In this document: positions 3,754-18,047 of the stretch, one piece after another
Layout: each line of letters opens with the position of its first letter
Position numbering within the stretch: the first letter of the stretch is position 1
NCBI GenBank assembly: GCA_963702425.1
Contig: CAVPCQ010000016.1
Coordinates: forward strand, 160,001-224,000
Direction: 5' to 3'
DNA: 64,000 nucleotides
From: an uncultured Acidobacteriota bacterium
GTDB lineage: Bacteria > Acidobacteriota > Polarisedimenticolia > J045
The notes under the pieces: model-generated
What the model was told of the DNA's origin: nothing
Databases searched by the model: none
The model's input: only the letters and a program-made list of their open reading frames with translations
Position numbers and translations under genes: made by a program

Positions 3754-4050
3754 GGCCGGCCTCCGTGCCGGCCCGCTCCTCGCATTCGTGCTTCTCGCGC
3801 AGCCGTAGGGGCCGGCCTCCGTGCCGGCCCGCTCCTCGCATTCGTGCTTCTCGCGCAGCCGTAGGGGCCGGCCTCCGTGCCGGCCCGCTCCTCGCATTCG
3901 TGCTTCTCGCGCAGCCGTAGGGGCCGGCCTCCGTGCCGGCCCGCTCCTCGCATTCGTGCTTCTCGCGCAGCCGTAGGGGCCGGCCTCCGTGCCGGCCCCT
4001 ACGGTTCGTTGCCGCGCGCGCTTCGGGCCGGCACAGAGGCCGGCCCCTAC
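3739..4050. repeat. GTAG-family REP cluster: five tandem REPs at ~56-bp period plus one inverted copy
   Basis: GTAGGGGCCGGCCTCCGTGCCGGCCC (GTAG plus GGGCCGGC-N6-GCCGGCCC hairpin) at 3750 (one G short), 3805, 3861, 3917 and 3973; inverted copy at 4025-4050; sequences between the tandem copies are identical. Confidence 0.9.
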
Positions 4051-4083
4051 CGGCATCCCGGTGCGCGCGCTACGCTGGCGTGC

Positions 4084-5530
4084 GTGAAGACCGCCGACCG
4101 ACCGGGAACCGTGCTGCACCTCGACCCGTTCAGCGGGGCCGCGGGGGACATGTTCCTCGGCCTGCTGCTGGACCTGGGTCTCGACCCCGCCCTGCTCGCC
4201 GCCCTTCCCGCACGCCTCGGCCTGTCGGGGGTCGAGGTGCGGACCGAGCGCGCCGCCCGTGGGCCGTTCGACGCCGCGCGGGTGCGGGTCGTGGTGCGCG
4301 GGCAGGAGGAAGAGCCGGCTGAACCGGCCGACGACCTGCTCAACGGCGACGGCCCCCCGCACGTTCACGCGGACCACGGCGATCACGATCACCGCCACGG
4401 CGAAGCCGTGCGTCAGCACGGCGAAGCCGGGCACCGCACGGCGAAGCCGGGCCCGCCACGGCGAAGCCGTGCATCAGCACGGCGAAGCCGGGCCCCGCCA
4501 CGGCGAAGCCGTGCGTCAGCACGGCGAAGCCGGGCACCACGCCGGCCGCCAGCTGGCCGGGATGCTCGCCGCGTTCGAGCGCGCCGCGCTGCCGCCGCGA
4601 GCCCTGGCGCGCGCGCGCCGCGCCGCCGGCCTGCTCTACGCCGCCGAAGGGAAGGTGCACGGCCTCCCGGCCGAGGAGGTCCACCTGCACGAGGCCGGCG
4701 CCGACGACGCGCTGGTCGACATCGCGGGGACCTGCCTGGGGCTCGAGGAGCTGGGGATCGATCGCGTCACCTGTTCCGCCCCGGTCCCGCTCGGCGGAGG
4801 CGCGATCCGCTGCGCGCACGGCGTGCTGCCGGTCCCGGTGCCGGCCGTGGTCGAGCTGCTGCGCGGGGTCCCGGTCGCGGGCGGCCCGATCGCGAAGGAA
4901 CTCGTCACGCCGACCGGCGCGGCGCTGCTGGTCGCGATCGTCGATGCCTTCGGCCCGCTCCCGCCGCTGACGATCGTGCGCGTCGGCCACGGGGCCGGCG
5001 GCCGCGACGACGCGGCGCTGCCGAACGTGCTGCGCGGCCTGCTGGGCGCGGCGCTGGAAGAGGTCGCGCGGACGCGGCAGGTCGCGGTGCTGGAGACGGC
5101 GCTCGACGACATCCTGCCGCAGGATGTCCCGGTGCTGATCGAGCGGCTGCTCGCGGCCGGCGCGCGCGACGCGATGGTCGCCCCGGTCCAGATGAAGAAG
5201 GGGCGCCCCGGGTTCCACCTGACCGTGCTCTGCGACCCGGGCGAGGAGCGCCGGCTGGCCGGCATCCTGCTGCACGACACGCCGACGCTCGGCGTGCGGA
5301 TGCGGATCGAGCGCCGCGTCGAGTGGGACCGCGACGTCGTCGCGGTCGAGACGCCGTGGGGCCCCGTCCGCGTCAAGCGCGCCATGGACACGCGCGGCCG
5401 CGTGCTGCGCGCCCAGCCCGAGTTCGAGGACTGCCGCCGCGCCGCCGACGCCGCCGGCGTCACGCCCGACGCCGTGCGCCGCGCGGCGCAGGCCGCCCTG
5501 GGCGAGCCACCGGCCGAGGACCCGAAATGA
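4084..5530 (+). CDS. larC: Nickel pincer cofactor biosynthesis protein LarC (frameshifted in His-rich repeat)
   Basis: LHLDPFSGAAGDMFLG in one frame; EGKVHG, VHLHEAGADDALVDI, CAHGVLPVPVPA, ELVTPTGAALL, MKKGRPG, QPEFEDC in the frame of 4259..5530. Confidence 0.85.
4396..4540 (+). repeat. Seven tandem 21-nt units encoding HGEA-xxx heptads inside larC
   Basis: CACGGCGAAGCC-N9 repeated seven times; two units are 20 nt (145 = 147-2 nt), which accounts for the frame change. Confidence 0.85.
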
Positions 5531-7611
5531 CCGCCCGTCGCTCCTTCTACGTCACGACCCCGATCTACTACGTCAACGACCTGCCGCACATCGGCCACAC
5601 CTACACCACGGTCGTCGCCGACGCGCTGGCGCGCTTCCACCGCCTGGCGGGCGACGAGGTCTACTTCCTGACCGGGACCGACGAGCACGGGCAGAAGATC
5701 GAGCGCGCGGCGGCGAAGCGCGGGATCGCGCCGCTGGCGCTGGCCGACGAGGTGGTGCTCAACTACCGGCAGCTCTGGCCGGCGCTGGCGATCAGTCACG
5801 ACGACTTCATCCGCACCACGGAAGCGCGGCACAAGGCCGGGGTCTACGAGCTGTTCCGCAGGATCCGCGAGAAGAGCCCCGACGCGATCTACAAGGGCAC
5901 TTATCGCGGCCTCTACTGCACCGGCTGCGAGGCGTTCTACACCCCCGCGCAGCTGGTCGACGGAAAGTGCCCCGAACAGGGCCATCCGGTCGAGGAGGTC
6001 GAGGAATCGTCCTGGTTCTTCCGGCTCTCGGCCTACCAGGACCGGCTGCTCGCGCTGTACGACCGGCAGCCCGGGTTCGTGCTGCCCGAGACGCGGCGCA
6101 ACGAGGTCCGCGCCTTCGTGGCCTCCGGGCTGCGCGACCTCTCGATCTCGCGCAGCAGGGACAAGGTCGGCTGGGGGATCCCCTTCCCCGGCGACCCCGA
6201 GCACGTCGTCTACGTCTGGTTCGACGCGCTGACCAACTACCTCTCGGCGCTCGGCTACGGCTCCGACGACCCGCGCAAGGTCGCGCGCTACTGGCACAAC
6301 GAGCCGGGGCACACGGCGCTGCACCTGGTGGGCAAGGACATCCTGCGCTTCCACGCGGTCTACTGGCCGGCCTTCCTGATGGCCGCCGGCGAGGAGCTGC
6401 CGCGCACGGTCTTCGGCCACGGCTGGTGGCTGAAGGACGACGCCAAGATGAGCAAGACGACCGGCAACATCGCGCGGCCCGGTCCGCTGCTCGAGACCTT
6501 CGGGGCCGATGCGCTGCGCTGGTTCCTGCTGCGGGAGATCCCGCTCGGGCTCGACGGCTCGTACTCCGACGAGGCGGTGCTGGAGCGGACCAACTCCGAC
6601 CTGGCCAACAACGTCGGCAACCTCTACTCGCGGGTGCTGGCGCTGATCGAGAAGAACGAAGCGGGCGTCGTCCCCGCCGCGGACGGCGCGCCGGCCGACG
6701 CGGTGCTCGACGGTCTGGCCGCCGCGGCGCGCGCGGCCTACCGCGCGGGGTTCGAGACCCACGACCCGTCGGCCGCGCTGCGCGCGGTGACCGAGTGGGC
6801 CGACGCGCTGAACAAGTACTTGGTGCGCCACGAGCCGTGGAAGCGGCCCGGGCGCGAGGCGCTGACCGCGGGGGTGCTGGGCGTCGCCGCGCAGCAGCTC
6901 GCGCAGATCGCGCTGCGGCTGCACCCGGCGATGCCGGTCGCCGCCGCCCGGCTGTGGCGGATGCTCGGCCTGGGCGAGGACCCGGCGCGCGAGATCGCGC
7001 CCGGCGTCGACCTGCTGGAGCTGGAGACGCTCCCCGTCGCCGGCCGCCGCATTGGCGCCGGCGAGGCCGTCTTCCCGCGCCTCGACCGCAAGGCCATCTT
7101 CGGCGACGTCGCTCCCGCTGCTGCGCCCCCCGTGGCCTCCTCCGGCGCGCCCACTGTAGGGGCCGGCCTCCGTGCCGGCCCGCCCACTGTAGGGGCCGGC
7201 CTCCGTGCCGGCCCGCAAGAGGCATCGACCGTGTCCGACACGCCACCCCCCGCCCCCGCCTCGCCCCCTTCTCCGCTGCCCGACGGCCTGATCGCGATCG
7301 ACGAGTTCTCGAAAGTCCAGCTGCGCTGCGCGAAAGTCCTGGTCTGCGAGCGCCACCCGAACGCCGAGAAGCTCCTTCGCCTCGAAGTGGACCTCGGTGG
7401 CGAGACGCGGCAGCTCGTCGCCGGCATCGCCTCGGCCTACCGGCCGGAGGACCTGGTCGGCCGAACGATCATCGTCGTCGCCAACCTCAAGCCGGCCAAG
7501 CTCCGCGGCCTCGAGTCGCAGGGGATGCTGCTCGCGGCGACCGGCCCGGACGGCGTGCCGCACGTGCTGGGGCCGGACGGCGAGGTACCGCCCGGGTCCA
7601 AAGTGTCCTAG
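5527..7611 (+). CDS. metG: Methionine--tRNA ligase with C-terminal tRNA-binding (Trbp111-like) domain
   Basis: ATGA overlap with larC; YVTTPIYYVNDLPHIGH, GTDEHGQK, YVWFDALTNY, GKDILRFH, KMSKT, C-terminal NLKPAKLRGLESQGM. Confidence 0.95.
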   Translation: MTARRSFYVTTPIYYVNDLPHIGHTYTTVVADALARFHRLAGDEVYFLTGTDEHGQKIERAAAKRGIAPLALADEVVLNYRQLWPALAISHDDFIRTTEARHKAGVYELFRRIREKSPDAIYKGTYRGLYCTGCEAFYTPAQLVDGKCPEQGHPVEEVEESSWFFRLSAYQDRLLALYDRQPGFVLPETRRNEVRAFVASGLRDLSISRSRDKVGWGIPFPGDPEHVVYVWFDALTNYLSALGYGSDDPRKVARYWHNEPGHTALHLVGKDILRFHAVYWPAFLMAAGEELPRTVFGHGWWLKDDAKMSKTTGNIARPGPLLETFGADALRWFLLREIPLGLDGSYSDEAVLERTNSDLANNVGNLYSRVLALIEKNEAGVVPAADGAPADAVLDGLAAAARAAYRAGFETHDPSAALRAVTEWADALNKYLVRHEPWKRPGREALTAGVLGVAAQQLAQIALRLHPAMPVAAARLWRMLGLGEDPAREIAPGVDLLELETLPVAGRRIGAGEAVFPRLDRKAIFGDVAPAAAPPVASSGAPTVGAGLRAGPPTVGAGLRAGPQEASTVSDTPPPAPASPPSPLPDGLIAIDEFSKVQLRCAKVLVCERHPNAEKLLRLEVDLGGETRQLVAGIASAYRPEDLVGRTIIVVANLKPAKLRGLESQGMLLAATGPDGVPHVLGPDGEVPPGSKVS
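7149..7214 (+). repeat. Two in-frame 33-bp REP-containing units within the metG interdomain linker
   Basis: GCCCACT plus REP twice (GTAG at 7156 and 7189), translated as PTVGAGLRAGP twice. Confidence 0.9.
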
Positions 7612-7674: not shown

Positions 7675-10600
7675 ATGCCCGAGAAAGAGCCCCGCCGCGG
7701 CGCCTCCCGCGCCGAGATCGAGAGCGCGTTGCGGCGCGCGGGCGGCAACCGCGCCGAGGCGGCGCGCGCCCTCGGGGTCGGCCGGGCCACTCTCTACCGT
7801 TGGATCGAGGCCGAGGCGATCGAAGGCACCGACGGCTCGAGCCTGATCGGTGGTCGCTACGAGTTGCTGCGCCCGCTCGGCAGCGGCGGCCAGGCGACGG
7901 TCTTCCTGGTGCGCGACCGCGCGGCCGCCGGACGCGGCGAGCCGTCCGAGCGCGCACTCAAGCTGCTGCACGCCGAGGTCGGCGAACCGGAAGAGGTCGA
8001 GCGGTTGCGCGGCGAGTTCCGCGCGCTGGCCGGCCTGCGCCACCCGGGATTGGTGCGCGTCTTCGACTTCGGCGTGGACGACGCCAGCGGGCGGCCGTTC
8101 CTGGTGATGGAGGTCGTGCCGGGCACGCCGTTCGTCGCGGCCGCCGCCGGGCGCTCGACCCGGTGGGTCCTGGCCGCGCTCGCCGCCGCGCTGCGCGCGG
8201 TCGCGCACCTGCACCGCCGCGGGATCGTGCACCGCGACCTGAAGTCCGAGAACGTGCTCGTCGCGCCGGGAAGCGATCCGGGACGCCCGGGCCGCGCGAC
8301 GGTGATGGACCTCGGCCTGTCGGAGGCGCTGGCCGGGCCGCAGCAGGGCGCCGGCGGCACACTGCTCTACGCCGCGCCGGAGTTGCTCGCCGGCGAGCGC
8401 GCCTCCGCCCGCAGCGACGTCTTCGCACTCGGGGTGACGCTCGAGCGCGCGCTCGACGAACGGCGCGACGACCGGCCGCCCGGTCTCGACGCGTTCCTCG
8501 CGCGGATGACCGCGGCCGACCCGGCGGCGCGCTTCGCCGATGCCGCGGTGGCGCTCGAGGAGCTGGAGCGGATCGCAGGTCCACTGCCCGACGCCGCCGG
8601 TCCGGCCGACGGGACCGCGGTCGCCTTCGTCGGCCGCGCGGCCGAACTGGCCGAAGCGCTGGCGCGCCTCGATCCGGCACGCGACGCGGCAACGCCGCCG
8701 TTGCTGCTGATCACCGGCGAAGGGGGCGCGGGCAAGTCGCGCCTGCTCGAGGCCGTGCTCGACGAGCTGCGCGCCCGCGGGACCGCGGTCGCGCGCGGCA
8801 CCTGCCGCCCGGGCGGCGAGCACAGCCTCGATCCGCTGGTCGAACTGCTGGCCGAGGTGCTCGGCGGCGCCGACGGAACCGGGACGGCGCCGGCCGACGA
8901 GCTGGTGCGCCGGCACCGCGCCGCGCTGGCCGCGGTCGCGCCGGCGCTCGTCGCCCCCGCGGCGGACGAGCCCCCGCCCGACCGTCGGACCGCGATCGCC
9001 GCGCTGGCCGAGCTGGCGGTCGAGTCGGCACGCGCGCGGCCGCTGGTGCTGGCGGTCGAGGACCTGCACGACGCCGACCCGTTCGTGCTCGACCTCGTCG
9101 CCGCGATCGCCCGCCGCGCGCGCGGCACCGCGCTGCGCGTCGCGGCCACCGCCCGGCCCGACGAGGATCGACCCGCGTTCGCCGCCGCGGCCCGCGCGCT
9201 GGAGGCCGAGGGGCTGTTCGCGGCGCTGCTGCTCGGCCCGCTCTCGCGCGCCGAGGTTGCAGCGCTGGCCGCCGAGGTCGTCGGGCCGGCACGCGCCGCG
9301 CTGCTGGCCGAGCGGGTCCACGGGCTGACCTCCGGGAACGCGTTCTTCGCCGAGACGGTGCTGCGCGATCTCGCCGAGCGGGTCGGCGGCGACGGCGACG
9401 AGCTGCGCCTGCCGACCAGTCGCCAGGAAGCGCTGGCCGAGAATGTCGCGCGCAGCGGCCCGGCCGGGATCGCGCTGCTCGAAGCGCTCGCCGTCGCCGG
9501 CGCGCCGGAGACCGACGTCGACCTGCGCGCCGTCGTCAGTGGCGCTGGGGGCGGCGAAGCCGCAGGCGTCGCCGCCGCGGACGCCGTCCCGGCGCTGCTC
9601 GCACGCCGGATGCTCGTGCGCCGCGACGACGGGCGGCTCGACCTGGCGCACGCGACGCTGCGCGAGGCGCTGCTCGAGGCGGCGGGCGCGGAGCGCCGGC
9701 GCGCGCTGCACCGCGCCTGGGCCGCGCTCGCCGCAGACGACTCGGCGCGGATCGTCGAGCGTGCCGGACACCTGCTGGCGGCCGCGGACGGCGCGGGCCA
9801 TGCGGACGCGCTGCTCGCGGCCGCCGACACGCTCGAGCGCTCGTGGCGGCCGGGGGCGGCGATCCCGTTCCTCGAAGCGGTGCTCGCGGCGTCGCTCGAG
9901 ACTGCGGTCAGCGCGGCGTCGCTCGATGCCGCGCCCCGCACCGCGCGCGAGCGGCTCGCGCTCTACGCACGGCTCGAGCGGGCCTGGCACGCGATCCGCA
10001 ACGACGTCCGCGCGATCGACCTCTGTCGCGCCTGGGCCGACGCCGCGCGGGCGCTCGGCGACGCGGCCTCGGAATCGCGGGCGCTCGGAATGCTCGCGGC
10101 ACGGCTGCGCGGCCTCGCCCGCTTCGACGAGGCGCGGGCCGCGGCCGAGAGCGCGGTTGCGCTGGCGAAAGGCAGCGGCGACCCGGCGGCGCTCGCGCTG
10201 GCGCTGAAGATCCTGGCCAGCGTGCAGCTCACGGCCTGGGATCACGACGCCGCCCTGGCAACGATGGAGCAGGCGCTGGCGCTCTTCCGCGAGACGGAGG
10301 ACCCAGGGCGCGCGGGCAGCGCCGAACGTGCCGGCGGCGCCGAGCGCTCCCGCGACGTCGCGACCTGTCTCAACGACATCGCGTTGCTGCGCGCGCTCGG
10401 CGGCCGGACACAGGCCGCGCTCGAGGCACTGGACGAGGCGCGGGCGATCTTCCGCGGGCTCGACGACCGCGTCTGGGCGGCGAACCTCCACGTCAACGAG
10501 GCGCTGGTGCGGACCTTCCTCGGCGACCTGGCGGGGGCGGCGGCGCGCCTCGACGAGACGCTGGCCGAGATCCCGGCGCTCGGCGCCGCGGTGCCGCTCG

Positions 10601-12943
10601 AGCTGGCGCTCGAGAACCTCGGCCTCGTGCAGCTCCGGCTCGGGCGCTACGAGGCGGCGCTGGCGACCGGCCGCCGGCTGCTCGACGAGGCGACCCGCTT
10701 CGACCGCCGGGCCTACCGCGTCTCCGGGCTGCTGATCGCCGGCGAGGCGCTGTTCTGGACCGACGAGCGCGACGCCGCGCGCGAGCACGACCGGCTCGCG
10801 CTCTCGCTGGCCGAGGCGCTGGGCGAAGCAGCGCAGCTTCAGTTCGCACGGCTCGCCGTCGCGCGCGACCGGCGCGCCGACCGCGCCCTCGACGCCGCGC
10901 GCGAGGCAGCCGACGCCGCGCTGGCCGACTCCGAGCGCACCGGAAACCTCAGGATCCGCGCACTGGCGGCGCTCGAGCGGGCACGGATCGCGCTCGACGA
11001 AGAGGACGCCCCGGGCGCGCTGGCCTGGCTCGACCGGGCCGAAGTCGCGCTGGCGGTTCCGCGCGAGGACGGCCCGGCCACGCGTGCCGCGCTGCTCTAC
11101 GAGCGCGCCCGCGCGCGCCGACTGGCGCGCCAGCCGGACCTGGCGCGGGCCGACGCCGAGGAGGCGATCGGCCTGGCGCGGCGCTCCGGGATGACCGAGC
11201 TGGAACTGCGCGCGCTGGCCGTGCTGGCCGGTCTGTTCGCCGAGCGCGGCGACCAGCCGGCGGCGGACGAGGCGCTGGCCCACGCGGTGGCGCTGGCCGA
11301 CGCGCTGGCCGGCGGGATCGCCGACCCGGCGCGGCGCGCGCGCTTCCTCGGCCGGCCCGACCTGCTCGCCCTGCGCGACGCGGCGGTCCGCCGGGGCGCG
11401 CTGCAGCCCGCCGGACGCGCCGCCGCCCCGGCCGGCCGGGCACGCGGCCTCGACCCGCTGGCCGCGCTCTACGAAGTCGCGCAAGCGGTGGCCGACGAGG
11501 GCGACCTCGACCCGCTCTTCCGCCGGATCGTGGCCCTCGCGGTCGAGCAGGCGGGCGCGGAGCGCGGCCTGCTGCTGCTGCGCCGCGCGGACGGCGGCGC
11601 GCTGGAGCCGGTCGCGGCCGAGGGGGTGGAGGACCGGACCGCGCACGACGCGGTGCAGATCTCGAAGAGCGTGCTGGCCCGCGCCGACGAGGGGCACGCG
11701 ATCCTGGCCCGTGACGCGCGCTCGCATCCCGACCTGTCGGAAGCGCAGTCGGTGGCGCTGTTCGACATCCGCTCGGTGATGTGCGTTCCGCTGCGCCTCG
11801 GGCGCGAAGTGCTGGGCACGCTGTACGTCGACACCCGCGGCGCGCACGCCGCGTTCTCGGAAGCCGATCTGCGCTTTCTCGAGGCGCTGGCCGCGCAGGC
11901 GGCGGTCGCGCTGGGCTACGGGCGGCTGGTCGGCCGGTTGTCGCGCGAGCGCGAGGCGCTACGCCAGGCAGCCGACGCGGCGCGCGGTTTCGGCGAGCTG
12001 ATCGGCCGCTCGGCGGCGATGCGCCGCGTCTTCGAGACCCTGGCCAAGGTCGCGCCGACCTCGCTGCCGGTGATCGTCACCGGGGAGTCGGGGACCGGCA
12101 AGGAGCTGGTCGCACGCGCGCTGCACGAGTCCTCTCCGCGTCGCGCCCACCCGTTCCTGACCGAGAACTGCGCGACGATTCCTGAGACGCTGCTGGAGAG
12201 CGTCCTGTTCGGCCACGCGCGCGGCGCGTTCACCGGGGCGGACGCACCGCGCCGTGGCCTGTTCGAGCTGGCGGACGGCGGAACCCTGGTGCTGGACGAG
12301 ATCGGCGACATGAGCCCGGGGCTGCAGGCCAAGCTGCTGCGCGTGCTGCAGGACCGCGCCTTCCGGCCGCTCGGCAGCGAGCGGCTGGTGCGCGCCGACG
12401 TGCGGGTCGTCGGCGCGACCCACCGCGATCTCGAGTCGCTGATGCGGGACGGCGTTTTCCGGCAGGACCTCTACTTCCGGCTCAACGGAATCACGATCGA
12501 GATCCCGCCGCTGCGCGAGCGCCGCGAGGACGTCCCGCTGCTGGCGCATCACTTCCTGGAACGCGAGGCCCGGGCGGCCGGCCTTCCCGCTCCTCCCACG
12601 CTGGAGCCGTCGGCCCTTCGCGCGCTGGCCGCGCTCGACTGGCCGGGCAACGTGCGCCAGCTCGAGCACACGATGCGGCGTCTCCTGATCTTCGCCGAGG
12701 GGGGCCGGATCACGCGCGAGACCCTGGCCGCGGACCCGGAGCTGGCGGCGGCCGCAGGGCTGAAGGCGGGGGCGGCGGGCGGAGCGAGGGCGGCCGCGGG
12801 ATCCGCGCCGGTGCCCCCGATCCGAGCAGGCGGTCCGGGAGGCGCTCGCCCGCACGGGTGGAAACCGCAAGGAGGCGGCGCGGACGCTGGGCCTGTCGCG
12901 CGCGACCTTCTACCGCCGGCTGGGGGAGCTGGGGATCCGCTGA
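7675..12943 (+). CDS. Fis-HTH / Ser-Thr kinase / STAND-type ATPase / TPR / GAF / sigma54-activator AAA+ / Fis-HTH multidomain regulator (frameshift near 12820)
   Basis: N-terminal GGNRAEAARALGVGRATLYR; kinase LGSGGQATV, HRDLKSEN, DLGLS, GTLLYAAPE; GEGGAGKS and VEDLHDAD; TPR-like helices; GAF SVMCVPL..GTLYVD; GESGTGKE, GAFTGA, LDEIG, FRQDLYFRL, WPGNVRQL; alternative frame gives ALARTGGNRKEAARTLGLSRATFYRRLGELGIR-stop at 12941-12943. Confidence 0.85.
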
Positions 12944-13084
12944 GGGAGTGTCTCCAGGCGTGTGGTCCACGCGGCGAGTTGCGGGTCCGGGACGGTCCGC
13001 GTTCCGGCCGAGCCCGGGTTCGAGTTCACGCTGAGCGTGGTGCCGCTTCCCGATGGGCCGTGAGGGGAGCCCTTCCTTCACCTT

Positions 13085-13250
13085 CCCGTGAGACACCCTC
13101 CGTGTCTCACGGGGCGCGGACACGCCCTTCGGCCCCCTTCTCCGTGAGACACCGCAACCCCTTGCAAAGACACGATTTGCTGGATGAGACACCTCATCTC
13201 CCCCGTGTCTCATGGACACGGCCTCCCGAGTGTCTCATCCCCATAAGACA
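13085..13250. promoter_or_regulatory. Putative upstream activator sequences (GAGACA/TGTCTC repeats) for the adjacent sigma54 activator
   Basis: Perfect inverted repeat CCCGTGAGACAC-N5-GTGTCTCACGGG (13085-13113); further TGAGACAC at ~13145 and ~13185, GTGTCTCAT at 13205 and 13230, TAAGACA ending 13250. Confidence 0.7.
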
Positions 13251-13255
13251 AGCAA

Positions 13256-13268
13256 TATCAACCACTTG
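13256..13268 (+). promoter_or_regulatory. IHF binding site
   Basis: TATCAACCACTTG matches WATCAANNNNTTR exactly and lies between the UAS and the -24/-12 element. Confidence 0.65.
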
Positions 13269-13284
13269 ACGCCGCCGCTCCGCA

Positions 13285-13300
13285 TGGCCCGCCTCTTGCA
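13285..13300 (+). promoter_or_regulatory. Sigma54 (RpoN) -24/-12 promoter
   Basis: TGGCCCGCCTCTTGCA with exact GG-N10-GC spacing, followed by AAGGAGG RBS and ATG at 13328. Confidence 0.8.
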
Positions 13301-13327
13301 GTAGTGCTTTTCAAAGGAGGAAGGACC

Positions 13328-15277
13328 ATGAAACCCGCACGCTGTTTCCTGGCACTCGCACTGGTGCTGGCGCTCGTCCCGCTCGCGCTTGCCGGGGGCA
13401 AGCCGACTGCGGTGCTTGCGCGCGACCTGGGCGCGGCGTTCGACGCGGCGAAGACCCCGGCCGGCACGCCGGTCGTGATCCAGCTCCGCGACGGCGCGAA
13501 ACTTGGCGGTCCGCTCGCGGCGCTCGCGGCGTCGGGCCGCACGGTCGGCCACGGCGCGCTCGTCGCCGCGCTCGATCGGGCGACGCTCGACCGCCTGGCG
13601 GCCGACCCCGCGGTGCTCTCGCTTTCGCCCGACCGCGAGATCCGCGCCAACCTCGACGTCGGCCGCCCGGCGGTCAACGGCGACATCGCCTACACCACGA
13701 CCGGTGCGACCGGCCGCGGCGTGACCGTGGCGCTGATCGACTCCGGACTCGCGCCGGGCATCGCGGTCCCCGAGTCGCGCGTCTTGGCGCGCGTCGACTT
13801 CGTCGATCCGAAGGGCAAGGCGCGCGACGGCTTCGGCCACGGCACCCACATCGCCGGGATCATCGGCGGGCGGGACGGCGTGGCGCCGGAGACCAACTTC
13901 GTCGTGCTGCGCGTGCTCGACGACCAGGGGGCCGGCCGGCTCTCGTCGGTGATCTCGGCGGTCGACTGGGCGATCGCCAACAAGGCCGCGTACGGGATCG
14001 AAGTCGTCAACCTGTCGCTGGGCTACACGCCGCAGATGTCGTTCCGGTTCGACCCGCTGAACGTCGCGGTGCGCCGGGCCTGGGACGCCGGGCTGACGGT
14101 CGTCGCCTCGGCCGGCAACCGCGGCCGCGATGGCCGCCTGACGATCAACGCACCGGGCAACGACCCGCTGGTGATCACCGTCGGCGCGATGAACGACTTC
14201 AACACCGTGGCCCGCGGGGACGACTCGGTGACCACGTTCTCCGGCCGCGGCCCGTCGCTGGGCGACCTGGTCGTGAAGCCGGACGTCGTCGCGCCGGGCA
14301 ACCGGATCGTCGGGGCGATGGCTCCCAACTGCTCGCTGGCGACGAACTACCCCGACAAGGTCGTGGACAACAATCTCGAACTGTCCGGCACGAGCATGGC
14401 GGCCGGCTTCGCCACGGCGACCGCCGCGCTGCTGCTCGAGCGCTACCCCGACGCCAGCAACGACGCGATCAAGTCGATCCTGATGCGCTCGGCGGAAAAG
14501 GTGCCGGGCGACGTCTTCGCGCGCGGCGCGGGCTACCTCGACGCGCTGAAGGCGCTCCAACTGGCGGCTACGATGGCGACGCCGCGCGACTTCAACTCGG
14601 CCTCCCCGCTCGTGGCGCGCACGCCGAAGGGCGTGGCCTTCTACACCCTGAACGGCAAGACCCACCGCCCGGTGCTGCTGGCCAACGTCGGTGCGACTTA
14701 CGGCAAGGGCGCGACCTATGGCGACCCGCAGTTCTGGCACGACGCGGAGCTGTGGGGCGAGCGGGCCGCGGCCTATGCCGACGGCGTGATCTGGGCCGAC
14801 GGCGTGATCTGGGGCGACGGCGTGATCTGGGGCGACGGCGTGATCTGGGGCGACGGCGTGATCTGGGGCGACGGCGTGATCTGGGGCGACGGCGTGATCT
14901 GGGGCGACGGCGTGATCTGGGCCGACGGCGTGATCTGGGGCGACGGCGTGATCTGGGGCGACGGCGTGATCTGGGGCGACGGCGTGATCTGGGGCGACGG
15001 CGTGATCTGGGCTGACGGCGTGATCTGGGGCGACGGCGTGATCTGGGGTGACGGCGTGATCTGGGGCGACGGATTGCTCTGGGGCGACGGCGTGATCTGG
15101 GGTGACGGCGTGATCTGGGGCGACGGCGTCATCTGGGCCGACGGCGTGATCTGGGGTGACGGTGTGATCTGGGGTGACGGCGTGATCTGGGCCGACGGTG
15201 TGATCTGGGGCGATGGCGTGATCTGGGGCGACGGCGTGATCTGGGGTGACTCGCTCACGGGCGCCGTAGCCGACTGA
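13328..15277 (+). CDS. Secreted S8 subtilisin-like serine protease (AprX-like) with C-terminal hexapeptide repeat tail
   Basis: Signal peptide MKPARCFLALALVLALVPLALA, propeptide, catalytic VALIDSG / HGTHIAG / SGTSMA, oxyanion SAGN; 26 x (G/A)DGVIW at the C-terminus. Confidence 0.9.
   Translation: MKPARCFLALALVLALVPLALAGGKPTAVLARDLGAAFDAAKTPAGTPVVIQLRDGAKLGGPLAALAASGRTVGHGALVAALDRATLDRLAADPAVLSLSPDREIRANLDVGRPAVNGDIAYTTTGATGRGVTVALIDSGLAPGIAVPESRVLARVDFVDPKGKARDGFGHGTHIAGIIGGRDGVAPETNFVVLRVLDDQGAGRLSSVISAVDWAIANKAAYGIEVVNLSLGYTPQMSFRFDPLNVAVRRAWDAGLTVVASAGNRGRDGRLTINAPGNDPLVITVGAMNDFNTVARGDDSVTTFSGRGPSLGDLVVKPDVVAPGNRIVGAMAPNCSLATNYPDKVVDNNLELSGTSMAAGFATATAALLLERYPDASNDAIKSILMRSAEKVPGDVFARGAGYLDALKALQLAATMATPRDFNSASPLVARTPKGVAFYTLNGKTHRPVLLANVGATYGKGATYGDPQFWHDAELWGERAAAYADGVIWADGVIWGDGVIWGDGVIWGDGVIWGDGVIWGDGVIWGDGVIWADGVIWGDGVIWGDGVIWGDGVIWGDGVIWADGVIWGDGVIWGDGVIWGDGLLWGDGVIWGDGVIWGDGVIWADGVIWGDGVIWGDGVIWADGVIWGDGVIWGDGVIWGDSLTGAVAD
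14777..15244 (+). repeat. 26 tandem 18-bp coding repeats, (G/A)DGVIW
   Basis: 468 nt = 26 x 18; consensus GGCGACGGCGTGATCTGG with synonymous variants, Gly/Ala swaps and one GDGLLW. Confidence 0.95.
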
Positions 15278-15383
15278 GTTCTTCATGGGTTGACGGAACG
15301 GTTCCGCGGGGCCCCGTCTTCTCCCCCCGCCCCGCGGAATCGCCGAGGCCGGAATCGTCCCCCCACGGACCTCGGTTTCATCC

Positions 15384-15430
15384 CGCGCAGGGGTCGGGCG
15401 GTCCCTTGGACCCGACCCCTGCGCGATCTT
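15384..15430. terminator. Probable intrinsic terminator between the convergent protease and xth genes
   Basis: 15-bp perfect stem CGCGCAGGGGTCGGG / CCCGACCCCTGCGCG followed by ATCTTTCT. Confidence 0.55.
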
Positions 15431-15433
15431 TCT

Positions 15434-16213
15434 CTAGGATGGGCGCGCGTCCAGGTCGACGAAGACCGGCGCATGGTCCGAAGGCTTATCGCCTCGGCGC
15501 GGCTCGACGTCGATCTCCGCGGCCGCGGCCCGCACGGCGACGGGTCCGGTCGCGAGCACCAGGTCGATCCGCGCGCCGAGGTTGCGCCGGAAGGCGTTCA
15601 TCCGGTAGTCCCACCAGGAGTAGCGCTTCGGGGCGTCGTCGCAGCGCCGATAGACGTCCGCCAGCCCCCAGTCGAGCAGGCGTTTGAGCCGGACCCGCTC
15701 CTCGTCGGTGAACAGGATCGAGAAGCGGAACTCCTGCGGGTCGTAGACGTCGCGCTCCTCGGGGATGAGGTTGAAGTCGCCGAGCAGCACGAGCGGCTGG
15801 TCCGGGCGGTGGGCCGTTTCGAGGTGGCGCGCGAGGTCGTCGAGCCAGCGCAGCTTGTAGGAGTACTTGTCGGTCCCGACCTCCTGACCGTTCGGCACGT
15901 AGAGGTTGAGGAAGCGGATCCCGCCGACGGTAGCGGCCACGGCGCGGGCCGCGGGGTCCCAGGCCAGCTCGGGGAGGCCGACCGCCGGGTCCTCGAGCGG
16001 GGCCCGCGCCAGCAGCGCGACACCGTTGTAGGTCTTCTGCCCGAGGACGACGGCCTCGTAGCCGGCCGCGCGCAACGCGTCGCGCGGGAAGTCGGCGTCC
16101 GTGAGCTTCAGCTCCTGGAGCCCGATCACGTCGGGCCGGCGGGCCGCGAGCCAGTCGAGGACCGCCGGCAGCCGGACCTTGAGCGAGTTGACGTTCCAGG
16201 TGGCGATGCGCAT
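15434..16213 (-). CDS. xth: Exodeoxyribonuclease III
   Basis: MRIATWNVNS, LQELK, YNGVA, YVPNG, GDFN, YSWWDYR, RIDL, SDHAPV. Confidence 0.95.
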   Translation of the reverse strand: MRIATWNVNSLKVRLPAVLDWLAARRPDVIGLQELKLTDADFPRDALRAAGYEAVVLGQKTYNGVALLARAPLEDPAVGLPELAWDPAARAVAATVGGIRFLNLYVPNGQEVGTDKYSYKLRWLDDLARHLETAHRPDQPLVLLGDFNLIPEERDVYDPQEFRFSILFTDEERVRLKRLLDWGLADVYRRCDDAPKRYSWWDYRMNAFRRNLGARIDLVLATGPVAVRAAAAEIDVEPRRGDKPSDHAPVFVDLDARPS

Positions 16214-16369
16214 CGCGGCTCCGGGCCCGCGGCGCGGCCGCGGGGCGGCAGTGTAGCGCAGGCGCGCGGTGGCGATCCCGCGGCAGGGAGGGCGGTGCGA
16301 CCGGCTCGGGAGTTCTTGCTTGACGGTTCGCACGCGAGCTTCCTACACTCCGTTCCGGAGCCCCTGGCC

Positions 16370-16933
16370 ATGAGCACCCCCGGACACAGCCGCGCACCGA
16401 TGACCGCCGCCGACTACCTTGCGATGGCGGACGACGGGCGGCGCTACCAGCTGTTCGATGGGGAACTCGCAGAGATGACACCGGGACCTTCGGTGCGGCA
16501 CCAGCTGATCGTGATGAAGCTCGCGGCCTGGCTGCACGGTCACGCGGAGGCCCGCGGCCTCGGCAGGATCATCCCCTCCCCCGTCGACGTCATCCTCGGC
16601 CCACGGACGGTCGTCCAGCCGGACCTCCTGTTCATCGCGGCCGCGCACGCGGCGGCTCTCGACATGGACCGCGTGCGGATCGCGCCGGACCTCGTCGTCG
16701 AGATCCTCTCGCCCTGGACCCGTGGCGACGACCTCGGGCGCAAGGCGGACCTCTACGCCGCGGCCGGCGTCGCGCACTACTGGATCGTGGACCCCGAGGC
16801 CCGTTCGATCGCCGAGTGGATTCTCGAGGGCGGACGATTCGTGGAGCGCGCCCGTGCGTCGTCCGGCGGGCGGTTGCGGCCCGCGCTTTTCCCGGGGCTC
16901 GAGCTGGATCTCGACACCCTCTTCCGGGCCTGA
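16370..16933 (+). CDS. Uma2-family (PD-(D/E)xK) putative endonuclease
   Basis: RYQLFDGEL, HQ, VQPDLLF, PDLVVEILSP, KADLYAAAGVAHYWIVDPE. Confidence 0.85.
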   Translation: MSTPGHSRAPMTAADYLAMADDGRRYQLFDGELAEMTPGPSVRHQLIVMKLAAWLHGHAEARGLGRIIPSPVDVILGPRTVVQPDLLFIAAAHAAALDMDRVRIAPDLVVEILSPWTRGDDLGRKADLYAAAGVAHYWIVDPEARSIAEWILEGGRFVERARASSGGRLRPALFPGLELDLDTLFRA

Positions 16934-16937
16934 TCCG

Positions 16938-17270
16938 ATGAACCGCTACATGATCTGGTTCGACATCGACGACACCTCCGAAGACCTCGCCTTCGTCGAG
17001 GCGCTCGACGCGTTCCTCGACGACCTCCGGGAACGCGACATGATCGGGGGCTGGCGGCTCTCGCGGCGCAAGCTCGGCTTCGGTCCGCCGGAGCTGGGCG
17101 AGTTCCAGCTCGAGATCGAGACCGAGGACCTGGCCCAGCTCGAGCGGGCCTTCCGCGAGGTCTCGCGGCGGGAGGGGGAAACGGAGGAGCGCCACGTCGC
17201 GGTCTTCTCGCGGGTCCGCAACATGAAGACCGGGCTCTACCGCGACTTCCCGGACCCCTGGCGACGCTGA
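16938..17270 (+). CDS. Small conserved protein (DUF6614-like)
   Basis: 110 aa, YMIWFDI..., WRLSRRKLGFGP, LYRDFPD; family assigned from recall. Confidence 0.6.
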   Translation: MNRYMIWFDIDDTSEDLAFVEALDAFLDDLRERDMIGGWRLSRRKLGFGPPELGEFQLEIETEDLAQLERAFREVSRREGETEERHVAVFSRVRNMKTGLYRDFPDPWRR

Positions 17271-17272
17271 AG

Positions 17273-17336
17273 CGGGGACAGCAACCGTTAGCCGGTAAGC
17301 CGCTCGAATCGGGGACAGCTACTGTTAGCCGGTAAG
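17273..17336 (+). repeat. Left array: two copies of a 27-bp core at 37-bp period flanking RAYT1
   Basis: CGGGGACAGCAACCGTTAGCCGGTAAG at 17273 and CGGGGACAGCTACTGTTAGCCGGTAAG at 17310. Confidence 0.85.
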
Positions 17337-18047
17337 GCGCCACCCCGGCATCGACCGCGGCTCGTACGTTCCCGCTGCGCCATCGGCGTCTATCGCGTGG
17401 TGGCCGCGCCTGCCGGGATGGAGCGGACGCCCATGGCGGCGCTCCAGCCACTCGAGCATCTGGGGCCCTACGGATGGGCGCCCGGTGCTCGTGTTCAGCC
17501 GAAGGCGCTCGAGAGCCGCCTCGTCGATCCCCTCGCCAAGCCACGTCGCCCAGTCACGGATCGATCCCGGAAACGGGCGCGACGCGGCGAGCAGGTCGCT
17601 CGTCGCCCCAAGGGCATGAGTCCGCGCGCTGGACCAGGGATAGTCGGTCGCGAGCAGTGCGAGGTCCGCGCGGACGGGGTTCAGTTCGACGTACCGGACT
17701 GCCTCCCAGAGGTGCTGGTCGTCGAGTAGGGTCGAATAGAAGCGGTTCGCCCAGAGGTGCCCCGTCCACCCGTTCTGCTCGTTCACGAGACGGGAGAAGG
17801 CCCGGTGTGCATTCCCGATCGCCAGCGCCATCGCGTCCGCCCGCCGCGGCATGACGACGAGATGAACGTGATTCGGCATCAGGCAGTAGGCCCAGACGTC
17901 GAGCGCAAAGCGCTCGGCGTAGGCCTTGAGCAGGGCGAGGTAGCGACCCCGATCGGCGTCCGACGCGAAGATCTCGGCGCGGCGGTTCCCTCGGTGAGTA
18001 ACGTGGTACGGGAATCCCTGCTGCACGAGACGCGCCATGCGTGCCAT
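17325..18047 (-). mobile_element. REP-associated tyrosine transposase-like HUH Y1 protein (RAYT1)
   Basis: YHVTHRGNRR, YCLMPNHVHL (HUH), GHLWANRF, RYVELNPVRA, YPWSS; no tnpB. Confidence 0.9.

Follow-up and report, generated by a model that had tools for sequence, protein, structure and literature searches.

Enhancer-binding proteins (EBPs; general background in the available part of PMC7910581) of the GAF type, such as NifA, NorR and FhlA, consist of a GAF domain, an AAA+ domain with the motif GAFTGA and a Fis-type helix-turn-helix (HTH), in this order, and are accompanied, next to the activator gene, by upstream palindromic sites, a site of the integration host factor (IHF) type and a -24/-12 promoter. 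The same order of domains, with the HTH out of frame as assembled, and the same kind of control region occur in the locus described here, at positions 7,675 to 15,277 of a 64,000-nt stretch of DNA (the window; C16:160001-224000) from the 5.1-Mb, 42-contig draft genome of an uncultured Acidobacteriota bacterium (G000), where a giant regulator gene is followed by the gene of a secreted subtilase. The names carried by homologues agree with Acidobacteriota and point to the vicinity of Candidatus Polarisedimenticolaceae. The regulator differs from NifA, NorR and FhlA by about 1250 extra N-terminal residues (HTH, Ser/Thr kinase, STAND ATPase and tetratricopeptide repeats, TPRs), and the target is a secreted protease. 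From gene order, control sites and their conservation it appears likely that regulator and protease form a dedicated activator-target pair, in which the activator switches on the promoter of the protease gene.

The N-terminal part of the regulator shares the fusion of a Hanks kinase, an AAA_16/MalT-like NTPase and putative helical repeats with PknK of Mycobacterium tuberculosis and with STAND proteins of the MalT/LAL type, whereas the regulator has, as its output, GAF, a sigma-54 AAA+ engine and HTH. PknK regulates growth adaptation, and one database source names a relative 'PknK'. The kinase-MalT fusion has been described, in the available part of the text without mention of sigma-54 (PMC1262709), and another paper lists, in its available part, Sigma54_activat as fused only to Lon (PMC2605481).

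The complete set of Pkinase, AAA_16, GAF and Sigma54_activat domains is found in proteins of Sorangium, Polyangia and Planctomycetes annotated as 'sigma 54-interacting transcriptional regulator', to which the regulator is 34-41% identical over parts only. The protease shares an N-terminal propeptide and the subtilisin fold with Pro-Tk-SP and pro-subtilisins (3afg, 3whi, 2e1p); the C-terminal parts of all these proteins are folded domains, whereas the protease ends in a Trp-rich array of hexapeptides for which AlphaFold2 gives no fold.

A literature search found no experiment on the full-architecture proteins of Sorangium, Polyangia and Planctomycetes, and no description of a regulator of this type, of sigma-54-controlled Acidobacteriota subtilases or of the tail; the available part of one paper (PMC12316311) mentions neither Acidobacteria nor subtilisin. 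This agrees with an earlier note on this DNA, made from the sequence alone, which knew of no characterised example; the architecture itself is annotated in databases, as in Sorangium. The locus is an ordinary regulatory design made from two uncharacterised parts.

Regulator, control region and linkage

The regulator gene contains the following features, all on the plus strand:

7675-12819: regulator, main frame up to the frameshift; the open frame continues to 13269
7708-7800: N-terminal HTH_8, residues 12-42 (Pfam E 4.5e-8)
7858-8448: Ser/Thr kinase (Pkinase, PF00069), residues 62-258 (Pfam E 4.5e-26)
8626-9120: AAA_16 STAND ATPase (PF13191), residues 318-482 (Pfam E 2.2e-22)
about 9772-11424: TPR-type helical region, from a TPR_12 match and likeness to LGN/Pins
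10357-10566: TPR_12, residues 895-964 (E 9.1e-5; 23 bits, under the cut-off of 30.1 bits)
11503-11913: GAF, residues 1277-1413 (Pfam E 2.3e-16)
11998-12501: Sigma54_activat AAA+ (PF00158), residues 1442-1609 (Pfam E 1.5e-67)
12514-12735: AAA_lid_14, residues 1614-1687 (Pfam)
12819/12820: frameshift site, one base more than in contigs from close relatives, with the HTH out of frame as a result
about 12833-12928: C-terminal Fis-type HTH (HTH_8; Pfam E 3.2e-12) in the +1 frame, which is open over 12764-12943 with its stop at 12941-12943

All domains of the HTH-kinase-ATPase-TPR-GAF-EBP-HTH series listed in the earlier note are present, the TPR as a match below cut-off and the last HTH in the +1 frame. 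Because of this position of the C-terminal Fis-type HTH, the regulator is frameshifted as assembled, and the main frame past about residue 1715 is junk, up to 13269. The intact regulator is treated here as 7675-12943 minus one base, with about 1755 residues.

All three nucleoside triphosphate (NTP)-binding modules of the regulator have intact domains and catalytic motifs. By profile and motifs (catalytic Lys in ALKLL, HRDLKSEN, DLGL and APE) the first is a Hanks-type Ser/Thr kinase domain with predicted activity. The STAND ATPase has the Walker A motif GEGGAGKS and the Walker B motif LVLAVEDLH. The sigma-54 engine contains Walker A GESGTGK and GAFTGA, likewise present in 7 of 8 orthologs checked, and with PF00158 and these two motifs the regulator is, as judged from its sequence, probably a bacterial EBP. 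NifA is the top NCBIfam model (E 1.1e-106, residues 1262-1687); at 357.8 bits, below the model cut-off of 528.85, the regulator is not a NifA equivalog. The TPR region matches LGN/Pins TPR chains in the PDB with E 6e-10.

Among the best 120 relatives in the databases, about 35 by a count made by eye have the full architecture of the regulator, cultured Sorangium strains included. The kinase-AAA_16 chassis is also combined with SARP, LuxR-type, cyclase, GGDEF and histidine-kinase outputs among the database relatives.

The control region and the gene behind it are made up as follows:

13085-13240: cluster of enhancer sites with six TGAGACAC octamers, at 13089 (plus), 13102 (minus), 13145 (plus), 13185 (plus), 13205 (minus) and 13230 (minus)
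13256-13268, plus strand: IHF-consensus site TATCAACCACTTG, between enhancer sites and promoter
13285-13300, plus strand: sigma-54 promoter TGGCCCGCCTCTTGCA, TGGCCC-N5-TTGCA, with GG at 13286-13287 and GC at 13298-13299 (10/11 match)
13316-13321, plus strand: ribosome-binding site GGAGGA, upstream of the protease ATG
13328-15277, plus strand: pre-pro-subtilase gene, 649 amino acids, ATG at 13328, stop at 15275-15277

The intergenic enhancer repeats, IHF site and -24/-12 promoter read in the earlier note were thus recovered. All six copies of TGAGACAC in the window lie within 13089-13237, three per strand, with none elsewhere in the window, against an expectation of 0.90 per window; six copies were reached in 0 of 100 shuffles. 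A perfect 12+12 palindrome at 13085-13113 is part of the cluster. The heptamer TGAGACA occurs 58 times in the 5.1-Mb genome, and its sole cluster of at least three is the six-site cluster of this locus. The pattern WATCAANNNNTTR has a single match in the window, at 13256-13268 (expected 0.01), and TGGC-N7-TTGCW likewise a single one, at 13285-13300. The transcription start of the protease gene would lie near 13311, as we infer from the promoter position. The genome contains rpoN (417.8 bits, above cut-off) and four genes of the HU/IHF family.

Strict scans for sigma-70 promoters and terminators over 12900-15600 gave no match, and an Rfam E-value scan over 12900-15500 gave nothing close to a gathering score. 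In RNA-library run X20 one contig of a relative covers 13314-13475 and none the intergenic region; since contigs cannot show a transcript start, nothing is drawn from this run. None of the sequencing runs contained half of the sequence words of the stretch.

The word GGACACG(C/G)CCT occurs at 13118-13128 and 13214-13224, each time after a minus-strand TGAGACAC site and 96 nt apart; it could be a candidate site for the N-terminal HTH of the regulator.

Both proteins were searched in 41 related genomes, with 20 regions retrieved, and residues 1-470 of the protease were searched in 119 genomes of the class. The unpublished genome G034 enters nothing but the tallies of the 41-genome search, and none of the claims depends on it. 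Of the 12 assessable genomes of family f1, to which the window belongs, 11 have the regulator next to the protease; both genes point the same way in G000, G003, G004, G008, G009, G012, G018, G019 and G020 and are divergent in G007 and G016. A 2.8-kb insert lies between the pair in G003 and a Uma2 gene in G004, so that linkage within the family has outlasted an inversion and insertions. Adjacent pairs also occur outside f1, in G024 (f3), G027 (f6) and G033 (f11). G006 has a degenerate divergent remnant of the pair. In G015 regulator and protease lie on separate, non-overlapping contigs with other genes adjoining, and adjacency is not shown.

G002, G005 and G017 were left out of the tally, with the protease 0-330 nt from a contig end. 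Seven f1 genomes, six of them assemblies of 250-850 contigs, gave no protease ortholog with the query of the first 470 residues; in G001, G011 and G013 the regulator lies about 0.5 kb or less from a contig end, and in G014 (99% complete) neither regulator nor protease was found.

In G003 (L016:6329-9100) the region of sites and promoter together with the first protease codons is duplicated around an insert of roughly 2 kb with two open reading frames (ORFs).

In a tree of 64 S8 domains, from which 35 rows with short matches had been left out, all 10 rows with an adjacent regulator fall in one clade of 17, with a support of 99 by the Shimodaira-Hasegawa-like approximate likelihood ratio test (SH-aLRT). 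The core of this clade, with support 100, has 12 rows, of which 8 have an adjacent regulator and 4 lie at contig ends; the S8 paralogues of the genome itself fall outside the clade.

Promoter and sites are conserved together with the protease. A 10/11 match to TGGCAC-N5-TTGCW is present about 110 nt or less from the estimated protease start in 12 of 16 ortholog loci; G009, G018 and G008 have TGGCA-N6-TTGA in its place, and G030 an 8/11 match. The GAGACA sites concentrate upstream of the protease (6 of 6 in 13 kb in G004, 8 of 9 in G007, 6 of 6 in G005 and 6 of 6 in G015), and G015, where the regulator is not adjacent, retains its 6 GAGACA sites and a 10/11 promoter. The core GAGAC occurs 5-10 times per 350 nt upstream of the protease in 12 f1 loci versus 0.69 elsewhere in the loci, with the site consensus c(g/a)T-GAGAC-A(c). 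Among the loci without adjacent regulator, a -24/-12 match of at least 8/11 is found in 13 of 15, and 2-9 GAGAC sites in 14 of 15.

Related S8 genes in GTDB species genomes were scanned at 78 loci (L032-L109; 32-45% identity, mostly Acidobacteriota). Upstream of S8 genes with 'WG' repeat tails, a -24/-12 match of at least 8/11 occurs within 300 nt in 50 of 77 cases (65%), whereas control windows taken from these loci reach it in 18% of 3080 and the opposite strand of the upstream segments in 15 of 77; a match of at least 9/11 occurs in 19 of 77 (25%) versus 3.1% of control windows. The related genomes are non-independent, and these figures are therefore enrichments, not formal tests. A small activator gene lies directly upstream in 6 of the related S8 loci, with a kinase or STAND match beside the activator in none.

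Two WG-tailed S8 paralogues of the genome itself, at C28:50474-51787 (minus) and C25:16357-17742 (minus), share a duplicated upstream region with the 10/11 sigma-54 promoter GGCAC-N5-TTGCT and the palindrome CGGACGCTCCGTCCG. This region lacks GAGACA sites, and contigs C28 and C25 showed no activator.

The genome contains 34 matches to the sigma-54 AAA+ domain, 3 of them with a kinase domain on the same strand 3.9-4.3 kb upstream. The third kinase-STAND-sigma-54 activator lies on C37 at about 82000-87900 (minus strand). About 140 nt past its stop is TGGCATCCCCGTTGCA, a 10/11 match to the sigma-54 promoter; no convincing frame is seen in the next 350 nt or so, behind which a hairpin lies. Its promoter directly behind the activator gene and a target that looks non-coding resemble the CbrB-CrcZ design, whereas the target of the regulator described here is protein-coding.

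Protease, repeat tail and flanking genes

Within and behind the protease gene the following features were located:

13328-13393, plus strand: Sec-type signal peptide, residues 1-22, recognized by eye (MKPAR, hydrophobic core, ALA|GG)
14777-15244, plus strand: hexapeptide array (G/A)DGVIW, residues 484-639, 26 contiguous units, followed by GDSLTGAVAD
15300-15341: second strong hairpin, past the protease stop
15384-15425: G+C-rich hairpin flanked by the stops of the protease and xth-like genes, which converge (z -4.58 for a 163-nt stretch)

The protease contains a propeptide followed by the S8 domain (PF00082, E 3.2e-43), whose triad D138, H171 and S356 is invariant in 35 aligned homologues. An AlphaFold2 model from a 35-sequence alignment is confident for residues 30-440, and Foldseek places this model closest to Pro-Tk-SP (3afg, E 1.5e-26, 30% identity), with pro-subtilisins next. 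With triad and N-terminal propeptide the protein is, on its predicted structure, a subtilase (peptidase S8). NCBIfam gave S8 models only, each below its own cut-off.

The 26 (G/A)DGVIW repeats of the earlier note are borne out exactly, and its signal peptide by eye; the units are 19 GDGVIW, 6 ADGVIW and 1 GDGLLW, encoded by an 18-nt DNA repeat with 92% matches. In the model of the whole protease the predicted local distance difference test (pLDDT) is below 50 for residues 453-545, 553-557 and 565-649, which is most of the tail, and for the tail alone the mean pLDDT is 31. Because of this low confidence no fold of the tail can be claimed and none excluded. Pfam searches with the tail, at E up to 1, returned chance-level matches only. 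A left-handed beta-helix of the Hexapep type (PF00132) finds no support, as no Hexapep match appeared at E up to 1 and AlphaFold2 gives the tail no confident fold. W_rich_C likewise finds no support, its profile not being among the tail matches at E up to 1; this domain is listed with subtilisins in the available part of one paper (PMC2605481). The ESM Atlas returned unnamed Acidobacteriota clusters and one cluster with 28% Hexapep members, a lead only.

Ortholog tails, compared at the loci L014, L017, L019, L020, L022 and L005, keep the period-6 pattern x-D-(G/T/Q)-h-h-W. Their copy number, by Trp count, is 6 in G009 and G008 versus 25-29 in G018, G004, G007 and G005. A short acidic C-terminal end is kept in the ortholog tails, e.g. 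TAPGxIED and SLTGAVAD. Distant S8 relatives across the Acidobacteriota carry 'hhWG' repeats with irregular spacing, and in the genome the best 30 of 46 matches to the tail motif are all at six S8 loci, behind S8 domains. WG tails are widespread with or without a nearby TPR regulator, which argues for a general role; the tail, as an extension of the C terminus, most likely serves binding, anchoring or secretion and processing.

Of the terminator-like hairpin that the earlier note placed behind the protease gene, the hairpin at 15384-15425 is present, and the strict terminator scan over 12900-15600 did not call it.

The flanking features are:

7611: 3' end of metG, upstream flank of the regulator (Pfam)
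about 12990-13063, plus strand: 3' relic of a Uma2 gene, from the alignment with G004
15434-16333, minus strand: Exo_endo_phos (xth-like) gene, convergent with the protease gene (Pfam)
end of ORF 15290-16933: whole Uma2 gene, beyond the xth-like gene (Pfam)
16722-17270: DUF6614 gene (Pfam)
17325-18047, minus strand: IS200-like Y1 transposase (Pfam)

The block lies between metG and the xth-like gene, as the earlier note had placed it. Among the ortholog loci compared, the metG-regulator and protease-xth neighbourhoods are conserved in the genus only. The Uma2 gene represented here by a relic is whole in G004 (L014:5540-6115, minus; Pfam E 3.8e-34), where it lies between the regulator and the enhancer sites. 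The Uma2, DUF6614 and IS200-like genes at 16400-18047 together resemble a short tract of mobile-type genes. At 3877-7611 one open frame contains both metG and a Ni_insertion (LarC-like) match; this shared frame, and the many long spurious ORFs over real genes on both strands, are due to the high G+C content, about 75% in the region examined.

Proposed mechanism and alternatives

In the proposed mechanism the C-terminal Fis-type HTH would bind the TGAGAC(A) sites, which lie 75-220 bp before the transcription start of the protease gene. The GAF domain and the N-terminal block of kinase, STAND (AAA_16) and TPR would gate the assembly of the AAA+ domains. A bend in the DNA at the A/T-rich site of the IHF type would bring the AAA+ ring to the promoter, where it would open the sigma-54 holoenzyme complex at TGGCCC-N5-TTGCA. 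The pre-pro-subtilase would then be exported by Sec and mature outside the cytoplasm. The sequences show the parts, their conservation, the unique site cluster and the preserved linkage, whereas DNA binding by the regulator, the signal sensed, the kinase's role and substrate and the function of the tail are inferred parts of the model. Sigma-54 and GAF-type activators are classically linked to nitrogen status, and by analogy a nutrient-scavenging role of the protease module is plausible for this reason.

Several observations weigh against a dedicated pair. Six families (f9, f13, f15, f17, f18 and f19) have a regulator within 0.9-1.5 kb upstream of the protease in 0 of 15 loci, and adjacency is therefore not universal; G030 and G037 have no regulator within about 6 kb of the protease. 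The nearest giant regulators in G108 and G037 are 40-70 kb off, and their kinase part has no match; in five genomes without adjacent regulator the matches of the best giant regulators begin at residue 452 or later, with 34-39% identity in the longest of them. By chance the -24/-12 pattern would occur 0.44 times per window, so that the promoter match is not significant on its own and takes its weight from place and conservation. The IHF consensus is not conserved even in the genus: the exact consensus occurs in G000 alone among 5 loci scanned, a match with at most 1 mismatch is absent in G004, G003 and G007, and the sole such match in G016 lies 209 nt upstream on the opposite strand. Judged by eye in the alignment, the G004 and G003 sequences have two mismatches to the consensus, and most loci have an A/T-rich stretch at the position of the site. 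The related genomes are non-independent samples, and the HTH is out of frame in this assembly, which, if the frameshift is real, would leave the activator here unable to bind DNA.

The last point leads to the view that the module is broken in this genome, the frameshift at 12819/12820 being real, the activator lacking its DNA-binding domain and the protease being silent or otherwise activated. The HTH in the +1 frame and the deletion of most of the neighbouring Uma2 gene, which marks the region as rearranged, speak for it. The out-of-frame HTH is nevertheless free of stop codons and scores E 3.2e-12, and contigs of relatives from two runs of different studies, covering 12637-12943 and 12538-12943, lack one base at 12819 (run X1) or 12820 (run X3), so that the HTH is in frame there. 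In the same-genus genomes G004 and G001 the AAA+ domain likewise runs into the HTH in a single frame. The extra base is thus private to this assembly. The draft has other matches with internal stops, and an assembly error of a single base or a very recent mutation would account for it too; a broken module is considered unlikely. A missing functional link, with the protease promoter served by another of the about 33 EBPs and the regulator acting elsewhere, would suit the C28 and C25 paralogues, which have 10/11 promoters and no activator on their contigs, and the orthologs of the six other families. It does not fit the linkage in f1, which survives inversion and insertions, nor the site cluster, which is unique in the genome, nor the lack of GAGACA upstream of the same two paralogues, nor the fact that the site motif follows the clade of orthologs, and we regard it as highly improbable.

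Peptide feedback, which the earlier note had raised, would have the subtilase cleave its own tail after Trp; the hexapeptides would be imported and bound by the TPR region of the activator, giving positive feedback or density sensing. The tail would then be a tandem array of pheromone-like hexapeptides, and the loop would resemble RRNPP systems, in which a cytoplasmic TPR receptor binds an oligopeptide cleaved from an exported precursor, but with a sigma-54 output. The 26 units stand in perfect register without spacers and end in Trp, subtilisins favour large hydrophobic P1 residues, and the TPR region resembles the peptide-binding TPRs of LGN/Pins (E 6e-10). The swing in copy number from about 6 to 29 within one genus (G009 versus G018) fits a cargo and not a fixed fold, and AlphaFold2 gives the tail no fold, although a failed model is weak evidence of disorder. 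WG tails on many Acidobacteriota S8 paralogues without a nearby TPR regulator, with units irregular in length and sequence, count against such feedback, as does the absence of any precedent. The neighbours examined are metG, the xth-like gene, Uma2, DUF6614 and IS200-like genes, and no search for a peptide importer was made. A feedback of this kind appears very doubtful.

The dedicated pair of activator and protease remains the preferred reading. The activator-promoter-protease logic of the earlier note agrees with the linkage in f1, the conserved promoter and GAGAC sites, the unique cluster and the presence of rpoN. Its self-contained module holds for f1, and not for the six families without upstream regulator nor for the HTH as assembled here; the comparison of genomes that it had proposed supports linkage in f1 and in the pairs of f3, f6 and f11, with the promoter at 12 of 16 loci, and shows that linkage is not universal.

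Implications for Acidobacteriota

Acidobacteriota, which abound in soils and sediments, are rich in secreted peptidases, and to our knowledge almost nothing is known on the control of these peptidases. The locus offers a clean testable case, with one giant sensor-activator, one motif (TGAGAC) and one promoter. As the kinase-STAND-TPR chassis recurs with other outputs, the input of the regulator, once learned, would carry over to other proteins. The Trp-rich hexapeptide tail, with its hypervariable copy number and no predictable fold, poses a structural question of its own. Taken from the sequences upstream of the S8 genes, the pattern suggests that sigma-54 may be a general switch for extracellular proteolysis in Acidobacteriota.

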